NCBI GenBank assembly: GCA_041663005.1
Contig: JBAZRK010000001.1
Coordinates: 288,734 to 336,733 of the forward strand
Length of the DNA: 48,000 nt
Direction of reading: 5' to 3'
Source of the DNA: Minisyncoccota bacterium
GTDB taxonomy: Bacteria; Patescibacteriota; Minisyncoccia; Phycocordibacterales; UBA9973
The position numbers and the translations under genes were made by a program. Positions 16,813-22,474 of this stretch are shown one piece after another (the stretch's first letter is position 1; every line of letters starts with the position of its first letter). Under the pieces are notes generated by a model. The model saw nothing but the letters and a program-made list of their open reading frames with translations, did no database searches and was not told the origin of the DNA.

Positions 16813-16833
16813 ACCCTAATCATACCCCCACAC

Positions 16834-18027
16834 CTATTTAATTTCAAGTTTAGAAATAGGTGTGGGGGCATACCACTTTTTTAGTTTTTGCAAAATTTGC
16901 CCGAGGGCCTTAATAACATAATCAATATCTTGTTTCTTGGTATCTGCGCCGAGCGAGAAACGTAATGCTCCGATCTCGGGGTCAGCATCAGGGCGAATAG
17001 CTTTTATAACATACGAACCTTCGGCGCGAGAACTTTTACAAGCGCTCTTCGAAGAGGCCATTATTCCCTTTGCTGAAAGTTCTATGACGAGAAGGTCGCT
17101 TGGAATTTTCGGAAATGTCACACTCATGTTGTTAGGTAATCGATTTTCCAAATCGCCGTTTATAATGAATTTCGGACGTCCAACGTCCGAAATTCGGACG
17201 TCCAACGTCCGAAAGAAATAATCACGGAGTTTAATTACACGTCTAGCTTCTTTTTCTCTAACTTTTTGCGCCACACTTAACGCGCTAGCAAATTCTAAGA
17301 TTGCTTTCAGATTTTCCGTACCGGGACGAAGTCCCCGCTCTTGGTCCCCGCCGCCGAAAATGTTTTGAATTTCAACCGACTTTTTCTTAAGGAGTACGCC
17401 AACTCGTCCGGAGCCTGAGATTTTCGAGCCCGACAAAGAAAGCATATCTACCCCAAGCTTTTCTATGTTTAAATCCAAATAGTTTACTGCCTGCACGGCG
17501 TCAGTATGAAAATAAATATTATTTCTGTTGTTTGTTTTTTTATAGTGCCTAATTTCTTTGGCAATTTCTTTTATCGGCTGGATTGTACCTATCTCATTGT
17601 TGGCATACATTACCGACACAAGGACGGTATTTTTTTTAATCGCTTTTTTAATTTTTTTAGAATCTACAATCCCGTTTTCTTCTACGGGCACAATTGTAAT
17701 CTCTGCCAGCTTTCTTTTCTCTAGTAGTTTATAAGTTTCCAAAACGGAAGGGTGCTCTATGTTTGTCGTAATAATATGCGGAAGCTGGGTAAAGTTTTTC
17801 TGCATCTGCGAAGCTAAGACAACTCCCTGAATCGCCAAATTGTTACTCTCTGTGCCCCCACTGGTAAAAATAATTTCCTCAGCTCGTGCACCTAAAATTG
17901 TGGCCACTTCGTGGCGAGCCTTTTCGAGTTTTCGTTTCGCAGAAATGCCTATTTCGTGGATGGAGCTTGGGTTCGGGGTCGCCGAAGCAGCGTAGTCCAG
18001 ATATATATATTTCATTGATTTTGGCAT
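16834..18027 (-). CDS. iscS: Cysteine desulfurase (IscS/NifS, group I)
   Basis: IYLDYAA, IFTSGGTESNN, IEHPSV, FHTDAVQ, SLSGSK, LRPGTEN, SSKSAC. Start placed at MPKSMKY (18027). Confidence 0.93.
   Translation of the reverse strand: MPKSMKYIYLDYAASATPNPSSIHEIGISAKRKLEKARHEVATILGARAEEIIFTSGGTESNNLAIQGVVLASQMQKNFTQLPHIITTNIEHPSVLETYKLLEKRKLAEITIVPVEENGIVDSKKIKKAIKKNTVLVSVMYANNEIGTIQPIKEIAKEIRHYKKTNNRNNIYFHTDAVQAVNYLDLNIEKLGVDMLSLSGSKISGSGRVGVLLKKKSVEIQNIFGGGDQERGLRPGTENLKAILEFASALSVAQKVREKEARRVIKLRDYFFRTLDVRISDVGRPKFIINGDLENRLPNNMSVTFPKIPSDLLVIELSAKGIMASSKSACKSSRAEGSYVIKAIRPDADPEIGALRFSLGADTKKQDIDYVIKALGQILQKLKKWYAPTPISKLEIK
17171..17213. repeat. Two tandem copies of the 21-nt palindrome TTCGGACGT-CCA-ACGTCCGAA inside iscS
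   Basis: Copies at 17171-17191 and 17193-17213; perfect 9-bp arms. Confidence 0.95.
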
Positions 18028-18051
18028 AAAAGTAGTATATATTAAGCATGC

Positions 18052-18507
18052 ATGAATATAAAGCTTCAAATAGCTTTTTTTGTTTTGGCGAGCATGGCTA
18101 TTCTCATAGGCGTCTTTTGGATGATTAGGACCGAAAAGCGATTAAAAAGATTTTTCCTCGGCAAAAAAGCCAAGGACCTCGAAGACACGATAGTAACGCT
18201 GAGCCACGACATTCTAGAGCTGAAGAGTGCAAGAGAAAAAATTGAAAAAGAAATCACCGTGATAAACGGCAAATTGAGAAAGAGTGTGCGCGGTCTTGAA
18301 ACTATCCGCTTCAACCCTTTTCCGGATCAAGGCGGCAACCAGAGCTTCGCTATCGGTATGTTAAACGAAGATGGAGACGGGCTGGTGCTTTCCAGCTTGT
18401 ACTCTAGAGACAGGATGAGCGTCTTCGCCAAGCCCGTAAAGGGCGGCAAACCTGCCTACGAGCTCACTGCTGAAGAAAAGGAAGCGCTAAGCAAGGCACG
18501 CGTCTAA
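18052..18507 (+). CDS. DUF4446-like protein
   Basis: N-terminal TM, coiled coil, IRFNPFPDQGGNQSFAIGML..G.VLSSLYSRD..VFAKP. Confidence 0.85.
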   Translation: MNIKLQIAFFVLASMAILIGVFWMIRTEKRLKRFFLGKKAKDLEDTIVTLSHDILELKSAREKIEKEITVINGKLRKSVRGLETIRFNPFPDQGGNQSFAIGMLNEDGDGLVLSSLYSRDRMSVFAKPVKGGKPAYELTAEEKEALSKARV

Positions 18508-20903: not shown

Positions 20904-21485
20904 ATGGAGACCAACTTCATTATAGAGATTCTAATGTTATACCAGATGCCCGCGCTTTTCCTGGGCTCTTTTTTATTTGGTGAAACGGTAATCCTCGCAG
21001 CTTCTTTCCTCTCTGCTCAAGGATTCTGGTCCGCTTGGACTGTATTTTTTCTTTCGCTCTTGGGCACTATGTCCTCCGATGCTTTGTGGTTCTTGTATGG
21101 GCACAAGCTACTTTCATTTTTTCACCGATGGGAAAAATATCGACACCACAGCGAGCGATTTCTTAAAACTCTCGAGAGGATAACTGGCAATCATCCTCAC
21201 CGCGCCCTCCTCTTCATCAAGGCCGTGTACGGCACCAGAATTTTGACTATAATATACTTGTCGCTCCGTAAGGTAAATTTTGGGAAATTTATATTATTCG
21301 ACCTTATTGGTAGCGCCTGGTGGCTCGCAGCGATAACTCTCTTCGGCTGGCTAGCTGGCAAGAGCATAGTCAACTTGATGCCTTTCGTAGATAGTTTGCA
21401 ATATGCAGCGCTGGCCATCGTCTTTATCGTCGTAGTCTGGAGATTAACTTTCACATGGCTCCGCAAGAAAATAATCAAAGAGTAA
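20904..21485 (+). CDS. DedA/VTT family membrane protein
   Basis: FLGSFLFGE..G...SD.LWFLYG..KAVYGTR..F.LFDLIGSAWW. Confidence 0.85.
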   Translation: METNFIIEILMLYQMPALFLGSFLFGETVILAASFLSAQGFWSAWTVFFLSLLGTMSSDALWFLYGHKLLSFFHRWEKYRHHSERFLKTLERITGNHPHRALLFIKAVYGTRILTIIYLSLRKVNFGKFILFDLIGSAWWLAAITLFGWLAGKSIVNLMPFVDSLQYAALAIVFIVVVWRLTFTWLRKKIIKE

Positions 21486-22474
21486 CCGCCGTCGTATCGG
21501 CATACAATGAAGCCCCGCGCATCGAGGCTGTCCTTCAAGTTCTCACTACCTACCCTGGCTTCGCCGAAATCATAGTCATCGACGATGGTTCCACCGACGA
21601 CACAGCCGAAATCGCAAAAGCCTTCATTCGGACGTCCAACGTCCGAATGAACGTGGTGCAAAATGACAGGAATATGGGCAAGGGCTACTCAATGGACCGT
21701 GGAGTGAAGCTCGCACATACAGAAATAATCTTCTTCTCGGACGCCGACATCACCGGCCTCACTCACAAAGCCATCGACGAAGTCATCGCCCCGGTACTAG
21801 GAGGCCACTTGGATATGATGATAGGTATGAGCGACCGCAGATGGTATGTGATGCACGAAATGCTTACCTTCGTCCCGCTCTTGGGGGGTGAACGTGCGAT
21901 AACGCGCAGCCTCTGGCAGAAGCTTCCCGAGTATTACAAACAACATTTCCGCATTGAAGTGGCGCTCAACTTCTACTCTGTTTACTATGGGCAGGGGTAT
22001 AAGTATAAAATCCTAGACGGCGTTTCGCAGACTATTAAGGAAGAGAAGTACGGCTGGTGGCGCGGGGCCTGGGCTCGTTTGAAAATGTTTTATAATATTT
22101 TCTCATCTCAGCTTCGGCTCAATTTCCGCCACACTCCGCACTTCGTCCGTGAGGGACGCTGGCACGCGCTGGTGGCTCTCTACGGTATGGCTGGCACCGT
22201 TCTTGGAATTTTATTTTTTATTGCCATCTACTTCGGCCCGAGCGAATTTATCCGGTATGTCTTCGCGGAAAAATTGCGTGACCCGGGAGCACTCTTGGCT
22301 CCGCTCTTGCTCGATTTCGCGAACTTCACCCCGATTAATAAAATAGCTCTGCTCGGTCTCTTGATTTTCATTTCGAGCATTTCAATTTTCATACTTACCC
22401 GCAAGAATCTCAACTTCCTTCTCTACGGCTTCATCTATAAGCTCAAAAACGGCAAGCATGGCAAACGCCTCTAG
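21455..22474 (+). CDS. Glycosyltransferase family 2 with C-terminal TM segments
   Basis: VVSAYNE, IIVIDDGSTD, NMGKGYSM..G, FSDAD, GGERAI. Confidence 0.9.
   Translation: MAPQENNQRVTAVVSAYNEAPRIEAVLQVLTTYPGFAEIIVIDDGSTDDTAEIAKAFIRTSNVRMNVVQNDRNMGKGYSMDRGVKLAHTEIIFFSDADITGLTHKAIDEVIAPVLGGHLDMMIGMSDRRWYVMHEMLTFVPLLGGERAITRSLWQKLPEYYKQHFRIEVALNFYSVYYGQGYKYKILDGVSQTIKEEKYGWWRGAWARLKMFYNIFSSQLRLNFRHTPHFVREGRWHALVALYGMAGTVLGILFFIAIYFGPSEFIRYVFAEKLRDPGALLAPLLLDFANFTPINKIALLGLLIFISSISIFILTRKNLNFLLYGFIYKLKNGKHGKRL
21623..21651. repeat. Third copy of the 21-nt palindrome, extended to 13-bp arms, inside the GT2 gene
   Basis: TTCATTCGGACGT-CCA-ACGTCCGAATGAA. Confidence 0.95.

Follow-up and report, generated by a model that had tools for sequence, protein, structure and literature searches.

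A translated REP-type palindrome in a glycosyltransferase gene of a Minisyncoccota bacterium and its probable link to a RAYT-like transposase

We analyzed a 48,000-nt stretch of the Minisyncoccota bacterium assembly GCA_041663005.1 (contig JBAZRK010000001.1, positions 288,734-336,733, forward strand), here called the window, in which a perfect palindrome lies within the gene of a family-2 glycosyltransferase (GT2). This palindrome is probably an element of the repetitive extragenic palindrome (REP) type, cognate to a Y1/HUH tyrosine transposase that resembles the REP-associated tyrosine transposases (RAYTs), and is read through in frame within a segment of the GT2 enzyme that tolerates it. The main fact that explains it is the cognate Y1 gene, which is located on another contig of the same genome.

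A palindromic repeat read in several frames

The first-pass annotation of the window described a perfect palindrome with 13-bp arms within the GT2 gene, whose coding strand is opposite to that of iscS, where further copies occur. This description holds in every detail, as does the placement of the encoded peptide, FIRTSNVRMN, between the DDGSTD motif and the next beta-strand. Based on the translation of the open reading frame (ORF), DDGSTD occupies residues 43-48, while the codons TTC ATT CGG ACG TCC AAC GTC CGA ATG AAc specify residues 57-66; the next strand of the AlphaFold model spans residues 64-69. The pattern of the 21-mer core matches the window three times, against 0.01 matches expected by chance, and no shuffle of the sequence reproduced the 29-mer palindrome. 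Folded as single-stranded DNA, the GT2 hairpin reaches -14.3 kcal/mol on one strand and -15.2 kcal/mol on the other (z approximately -5.4), and none of 200 shuffles was equally stable.

The genome comprises 690 kb in four contigs (43.5% G+C), and ORFs of at least 120 aa cover approximately 89% of it. Its most frequent 14-mers are those of the 21-mer palindrome, which is present in 15 exact and three degenerate copies. The half-site ACGTCCGAA occurs 32 times, and copies of the palindrome account for every one of these; thus, it is the hairpin, rather than the half-site, that is repeated. A DNA-uptake sequence, a candidate suggested by a likeness of the arms to that of Neisseria, was rejected because the half-sites are all in palindromes and there are only 18 sites.

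Approximately half of the copies fall within genes, namely GT2, iscS (two copies), gatB, purH (two copies, one of them degenerate), the gene of an RseP-like protease (degenerate) and the RAYT-like gene (one internal copy and one at its 3' end). Besides GT2, the copies in gatB, purH, iscS and the RseP-like gene are in frame. The two iscS copies occupy a length-variable loop ahead of a conserved NGD in the orthologue alignment, and doublets with the same 22-bp period are also present in related genomes. In different genes, the same 21 bp are read in at least five combinations of frame and orientation, as RTSNVR, RTLDVR, SDVGRP, FGRPTSE and SDVQRP. The earlier proposal that conservation acts at the nucleic acid level is therefore borne out, since an identical core gives RTSNVR in GT2 and RTLDVR and SDVGRP in iscS. 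That the sequence is instead kept for its peptide, as a short surface module of several proteins, has next to no chance of being correct. Hydrophilic, loop-like peptides such as SDVGRP and FGRPTSE do recur in many proteins, but the peptides made from the same DNA differ by frame and strand, which already contradicts this idea; additionally, half of the copies are intergenic, and the co-variation of the arms preserves base pairing and not amino acids. The 21-mer is free of stop codons in all six frames, whereas several sister REP families are not. We rejected this property as a mark of adaptation, since stop-free sequences also make up 43% of random 9+3+9 palindromes with the same GC content.

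The exact 21-mer was also identified on 47 metagenome contigs and in 11 further species-representative genomes, each of which is labelled either as a Patescibacteria lineage or as unclassified. Within the genus, 6 of 25 genomes (this one among them) contained either the REP or a compensated variant (TCCGGACGT..ACGTCCGGA); the 16 other genera sampled contained neither. An assembly or sequencing artefact at the palindrome of this metagenome-assembled genome is extremely improbable: REP copies are indeed located at contig ends in related drafts (G020 C8:16-36, C21:4-24), where such a repeat can disturb assembly, but the reading frame is preserved, the GT2 protein aligns end to end with its homologues, and the same element stands in frame in independent assemblies from several projects.

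Table 1. Location of the palindrome, its copies in the window, their host genes and the Y1 genes (C1, C2: contigs 1 and 2 of the genome; other positions refer to the window)
Feature	Position	Strand	Description
Extended palindrome	21623-21651	+	TTCATTCGGACGT-CCA-ACGTCCGAATGAA; 13-bp arms, perfectly complementary; 3-nt loop; translated FIRTSNVRMN
21-bp REP core	21627-21647		TTCGGACGT-CCA-ACGTCCGAA; 9-bp arms; 3-nt loop; inside the GT2 gene
GT2 host gene, intact family-2 glycosyltransferase	21455-22474	+	339 aa; Pfam Glycos_transf_2 PF00535, E 7.5e-20
REP copy 1 of the tandem pair in iscS	17171-17191		exact 21-mer; SDVGRP on the - strand
REP copy 2 of the tandem pair in iscS	17193-17213		exact 21-mer; 22-bp period; RTLDVR on the - strand
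Host of the doublet, class-V aminotransferase/cysteine desulfurase (IscS/NifS-like)	16834-18069	-	Pfam PF00266, E 2.8e-54
Y1/HUH transposase gene P0122, intact	C2:18145-18822 (ORF at L001:2143-2823)	-	226 aa; outside the window, on contig 2
Three further Y1 paralogues	C1:20488-21238; C1:26454-27190; C2:74336-75051		each with its own flanking palindrome

The RAYT-like gene and its hairpins

Seven REP copies are clustered at C2:18145-20340, with the ORF of the Y1 gene P0122 at the centre. One copy provides the last seven codons of P0122, and its adjoining flank, TGATGA, provides the stop. A second copy is located approximately 20 nt upstream of the ATG with its loop in the opposite orientation, and another one lies 51 bp further upstream; the two bracketing copies are thus inverted (C2:18145, loop TGG; C2:18841, loop CCA). 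A Y1 gene with inverted flanking REPs is the REPtron architecture of REP/RAYT systems (PMC2817692, PMC3733652). Additionally, P0122 carries a REP within its ORF, in frame (C2:18614-18652; L001 2615-2653), with a stem extended to 18 bp, in a loop that is predicted to be disordered (residues 59-64, pLDDT <50). The antisense side of this internal copy bears a T-run, like a terminator. A CRISPR array at C2:18-20 kb was considered and rejected, as the spacing of the repeats is irregular.

An alignment of 14 homologues showed that H81-F-H83 (the HUH motif) and Y141 are invariant. P0122 matches the Pfam model Y1_Tnp (E 7e-5, 23.4 bits, cutoff 23) and, weakly, the NCBIfam equivalog REP_Tyr_transpos (NF047646; E 2.7e-5, 24.1 bits). 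A direct sequence search of P0122 against the PDB gave no match, and only the fold comparison was informative. Using the AlphaFold model of P0122 (pLDDT 83.4, pTM 0.80), the best PDB match in Foldseek was 4ER8_A (E 6.2e-5, probability 1.00, TM-score 0.63 on the target), which is E. coli TnpA_REP bound to a REP hairpin (PMC3479197); IS608 and ISDra2 TnpA followed at ranks 2-3 and below, with E-values of 6e-4 or weaker. The predicted fold of P0122 is therefore closest to that of TnpA_REP, a RAYT, and not to that of the IS200/IS605 TnpA.

Each of the four Y1 paralogues of the genome is flanked by its own distinct palindrome, the present REP in the case of P0122 and CCCCAGATAGAGG..., CCCCTGCGCAAGG... 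and CCCCGAGGG... in the others, one of which also has an internal copy of its palindrome (C1:20712-20740). Most of 13 homologous loci from other genomes carry the cognate palindrome at two or three of the upstream, internal and downstream positions, and several carry it at all three; its sequence differs from locus to locus and changes in step at all sites. In the RAYT-like genes (P0122 and the homologous loci L042-L053), the gene's own hairpin stands in frame at approximately residues 57-70, with a stem of 11-18 bp whose extension shows paired changes between loci (AGAGGA/TCCTCT, AGCGGA/TCCGCT and AGGGGA/TCCCCT). Of the five complete RAYT orthologues that are closest, four (G020, G023, G002 and G003) come from REP-carrying genomes; those of G020 and G002 are flanked by palindromes different from the present REP, and a partial RAYT copy with 69% identity was found in G004, a genome with no REP match.

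This architecture and co-variation suggest that the Y1/RAYT enzyme mobilizes the REP. In such a mechanism, the hairpin would extrude in single-stranded DNA at replication, and the Y1 enzyme would bind it, cut beside it and join it into single-stranded DNA elsewhere. Because approximately 90% of the genome is coding, most landings would hit genes, and survival would be limited to insertions that preserve the reading frame, bring no stop codon and lie in surface segments able to tolerate them. The GT2 copy would be one of these survivors, translated as IRTSNVR in an otherwise intact gene.

Gain in GT2 and fixed sites in gatB and iscS

The comparison of GT2 orthologues for presence or absence, put forward in the first-pass annotation, was carried out. 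Based on the protein alignment, the peptide segment is absent from 17 of the 19 closest GT2 homologues (48-82% identity). The refutation that had been named, orthologues in which synonymous changes break the palindrome while the peptide stays the same, is not borne out. A VTT-domain gene lies upstream of GT2 with the same synteny in the orthologues, indicating that true orthologues were compared. With respect to the closest homologue, GT2 reads AKAF-IRTSNVRMNVVQ-ND instead of VKKF-PVRLVR-ND, a net gain of six residues; at the DNA level, the window reads TTC, then the codons ATT to AAC given above, then GTG GTG, where the orthologue P0003 reads TTC/CCG GTG CGC/TTG GTA. The single REP in GT2 is thus, by these alignments, an acquisition specific to the lineage, located where the helix that follows DDGSTD passes into the next strand. 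Another orthologue, P0011 (L058/L059, approximately 1660-1690), has a clean 30-bp insert directly after the same TTC (Phe) codon, which adds 10 aa (SAQGGPASGW) and consists of two 15-nt mini-hairpins, TCCGCC-CAA-GGCGGA and CCAGCC-TCG-GGCTGG, unrelated to the REP of the window. The site is therefore a permissive one that has been struck independently by a second palindromic element.

In the AlphaFold model of GT2 (mean pLDDT 83.6), helix 50-60 ends and strand 64-69 begins within the REP-coded residues, which are predicted to supply the final helical turn, three residues of turn and the first part of the strand. In Rossmann-like GT-A folds, the connection between the helix after DDGSTD and the next strand faces away from the nucleotide-sugar site. 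The family-invariant residues are all retained in the alignment with homologues; thus, the gene looks functional. In the metagenome collection, the exact 29-nt upstream flank had no match that would represent an empty site of the same strain; no GT2 orthologue was found in genomes of the same genus, and the collections searched contained no relative closer than the orthologue with 82% identity.

A CCCCA-REP-TGGGG arrangement with a T-run after it makes several intergenic copies (C2:19595, C2:20320) resemble intrinsic terminators, and REPs are known to influence mRNA stability and termination (Di Nocera 2013, PMC3733652). These observations, together with a GT2 stem that is 4 bp longer than the core, would agree with a hairpin selected in GT2 as a cis-acting element, either an mRNA-stabilizing or pausing stem or a protein-binding site. 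We consider this very unlikely, as the 17 orthologues that lack the segment manage without it, no T-run is present 3' of the GT2 copy, and the fold of the hairpin within a 101-nt mRNA context is not unusual (z -1.57). Moreover, the genes that contain identical copies are unrelated to one another, and the copies differ in strand and frame; at eight REP-bearing loci other than the window, neither ARAGORN nor Rfam (gathering thresholds) identified a tRNA, an rRNA or a known RNA family. The hairpin probably has no function of its own in GT2.

The flanks of all copies were compiled, as had also been proposed, from 84 unique copies of this genome and the fetched loci, 69 of which do not adjoin a second copy. 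An A or T stands at -1 in 67 of these 69 copies, and at +1 the count of T or A is likewise 67, which makes the inner A/T pair part of the element, whose real length is 23 bp. At positions -2 and +2, C and G are found in 23 of the 69 copies each, a mild enrichment that reflects a weak sub-family preference. In the GT2 copy, only the outer TT/AA pairs go beyond the family pattern, with a chance of approximately 1 in 16, and the left TTC is the Phe codon shared with P0003 and P0011, i.e., two of the three orthologues read as DNA. The suggestion that the TTCA/TGAA flanks reflect a palindromic target or a hairpin correction is thus not needed for GT2, where the outer pairs call for no special mechanism. 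A palindromic target at this site was rejected, since the orthologous empty sites contain no palindrome. Across the family, nevertheless, longer stems are mildly in excess: among 26 copies having at least two flank pairs, seven have at least four, against 1.6 expected (P approximately 8e-4). The RAYT-internal and the terminator-like copies, two of each among these seven, drive the excess. Symmetry-keeping processes clearly exist in the REP family, although the GT2 copy does not require them.

In gatB, the REP at C1:161068-161088 (outside the window; loci L122-L135) provides the seven codons of SDVGRPN. At the same codons, other perfect 21-bp palindromes are present: CTTGGACAT-TGA-ATGTCCAAG in G014, CTTGGACAT-CCG-ATGTCCAAG in G015 and CTTGGAGGC-CTT-GCCTCCAAG in G006, so that four species carry four different palindromes in this slot. 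The last three belong to REP sub-families that are multi-copy in related genomes; matches to CTTGGA-N9-TCCAAG are nearly all perfect palindromes, whereas the reversed control pattern gives none. The aligned sequences suggest a replacement of REP for REP at a fixed site. The iscS doublet is likewise found at the same site in another genome (70.7% protein identity), with its loop inverted, CCA against TGG. Together, the gatB, iscS and RAYT-internal data fit replacement or conversion as well as, or better than, fresh insertion.

Several points weigh against the reading of a REP mobilized by a RAYT-like enzyme. The GTAG tag that is the hallmark of classical REPs is absent from the flanks, and CGTC is present only within the arms; the copy number, 18 per genome, is low; and the link between enzyme and repeat is correlational. 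P0122 reaches 24.1 bits on the NCBIfam RAYT equivalog, where the cutoff is 80, and thus falls outside the curated model, and a PDB profile search with it was insignificant (E approximately 0.6). The gain in GT2 is a net +18 bp with respect to the nearest orthologue (82% identity), which matches none of the element lengths of 21, 23 or 25 bp and implies that the event took more than one step or that the ancestral loop differed. No other REP-carrying genome contains this GT2, which leaves no near-identical pair of empty and filled alleles. Finally, the gatB protein with the REP has the same length there as 14 of 15 aligned orthologues, the exception being G007, with a 13-aa insert of its own; a REP at the same codons without a change in length points to replacement or conversion at resident hairpins, which simple cut-and-paste does not predict.

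The main rival is therefore a RAYT-independent or mixed mechanism. In its RAYT-independent form, the REP would spread or be homogenized by gene conversion, by template switching between hairpins or by symmetry-restoring repair, with the Y1 gene as no more than a favoured neighbour or a further target. The net length of the GT2 event, the exchange of seven gatB codons without a change in length, and the paired changes on both arms of the palindromes in that slot are in line with it; so are the mild excess of stems longer than the consensus and the iscS doublets of the two genomes, which differ only by the loop, as expected of switching within a palindrome. We nevertheless find it unlikely as the whole account, because conversion requires a similar sequence beforehand, and the GT2 orthologues have none at the site, and because a palindrome for each paralogue and cognate palindromes at homologous loci are the signature of enzyme-substrate pairing. 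Such spread and RAYT activity are not mutually exclusive.

A REP translated in GT2 after mobilization by its cognate Y1 enzyme remains our preferred reading. More tentatively, and as a possibility that is less likely than not, REP/RAYT systems of these ultra-small bacteria may have become residents of coding sequences that work by cassette exchange and not by simple insertion, in which exchange a hairpin is swapped for one of another sub-family at the same codons. Either Y1 enzymes or hairpin-templated copying would swap REPs in a tolerant block of codons, such that fixed slots in essential genes would be rewritten repeatedly with protein length unchanged. This idea is based on the variety of palindromes in gatB, the iscS doublet at the same site in two species and the two unrelated hairpins in the GT2 loop; the GT2 copy would then represent the earliest stage, a first landing.

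Other repeats were observed in or near these genes. A second site of gatB (C1:160339-160376) contains a degenerate REP doublet (TGACGTCGGACGTCA ... AGACGTCCGACGTCG) that encodes DVGRQDSQTSDVG in a length-variable loop. The loci L071, L095, L098 and L111, from four metagenome or genome records, share one REP doublet (VSDVGRPKFGRPTSE and decayed versions of it) at a single site of an orthologous gene of approximately 325-357 aa, which indicates vertical inheritance of an intragenic doublet. IscS orthologues (L023, L028, L033, L037 and L039) have many other lineage-specific in-frame inserts in surface loops, e.g., PARNASSIASAGG and SSGRPSGSARP, and in that of G024 another loop contains the present REP, which is read as FGRPTSE. 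Repeat DNA that is translated may be widespread in the genus. A second repeat family, ATACCCCCACACCTAT, has nine copies, mostly in inverted pairs 26-56 bp apart, one at 16824-16837 of the window (C1:305557) and the others at eight further sites; one of its copies adjoins the iscS stop codon. Near a contig end, C3:29667-30900 consists of approximately seven tandem units of approximately 195 bp that share the 14-mers AGTTTGCTGACAAA, GCCGGAACTTCTAA and ATACTTCCGGCAAT.

Comparison with known repeat systems

A known class of selfish DNA would explain how identical DNA comes to be read as different peptides in unrelated genes and on opposite strands. It would also extend REP/RAYT systems to Patescibacteria, whose genomes have almost no intergenic space and in which the repeats are largely intragenic. 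For annotation, the implication is that short lineage-specific inserts in proteins of candidate phyla radiation (CPR) bacteria can be translated repeat DNA and not adaptive changes. A small perfect 21-bp substrate, a compact single-copy enzyme and natural co-varying pairs of both in sister genomes would make a convenient system in which to study how Y1 enzymes read hairpins. In our full-text literature searches, no account of elements of this kind in CPR bacteria turned up, and term searches of Nunvar 2010 and Di Nocera 2013 gave no passage on REPs within RAYT genes of other phyla.

Measured against the features that define a REP, the element is a short palindromic multi-copy repeat (approximately 20-40 bp), albeit of low copy number compared with classical REPs, and it flanks a RAYT-like gene in the inverted REPtron arrangement; its location is not strictly extragenic, and no GTAG/CGTC tetranucleotide marks its ends. 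As for the RAYT, P0122 has the HUH motif and the catalytic Tyr, its predicted fold is nearest to TnpA_REP, binding and cleavage of the cognate REP as single-stranded DNA are putative, and its score lies below the NCBIfam equivalog cutoff.

The closest likeness is to the REP/REPIN and RAYT systems of Proteobacteria (Nunvar 2010, PMC2817692; Bertels & Rainey 2011, PMC3116915; 4ER8, PMC3479197), which share with the present system a short GC-rich hairpin repeat, a Y1/HUH gene of RAYT-like fold flanked by its own repeat with the loops in inverted orientation, a separate repeat family for each paralogue, doublets and some terminator-like copies. In contrast to them, the present repeat has no GTAG head and is a perfect palindrome of 21-23 bp with approximately 18 copies per genome, approximately half of which are translated inside genes, with an extra in-frame copy in the transposase gene, whose enzyme belongs to a distant clade (24 bits on the NCBIfam RAYT model, where the cutoff is 80).

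Intragenic REPs tagged by GTAG or CGTC, REP dimers in genes and REP ends that provide stop codons have already been described (Di Nocera 2013, PMC3733652). As here, single REPs and dimers stand in frame in housekeeping genes and add short peptide inserts; however, those families carry the tag at one end, and their intragenic members are a small minority among hundreds of extragenic ones, whereas approximately half are intragenic in this 0.69-Mb genome. In-frame intragenic palindromic repeats are also known as the Rickettsia palindromic elements (RPEs) (PMC3733652), which resemble the present repeat in that they are inserted into essential genes of a reduced genome without loss of frame and are tolerated in surface segments. 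Classical RPE-1 is longer, and no dedicated RPE transposase is known, whereas the present element has 21-31 bp and a Y1 gene, and it does not qualify as an RPE. The IS200/IS605 family (IS608 TnpA, 2A6M/2VJV; ISDra2 TnpA, 2XM3) shares the HUH/Y1 fold and the recognition of hairpins on single-stranded DNA. Its members are mobilized as entire insertion sequences whose left and right ends differ, while here only the 21-bp hairpin is multiplied, and the gene is single-copy per repeat family. What sets the present system apart is an untagged perfect palindrome of 21-23 bp, with few copies of which approximately half are translated, and a RAYT of a distant clade whose gene contains its own substrate in frame.

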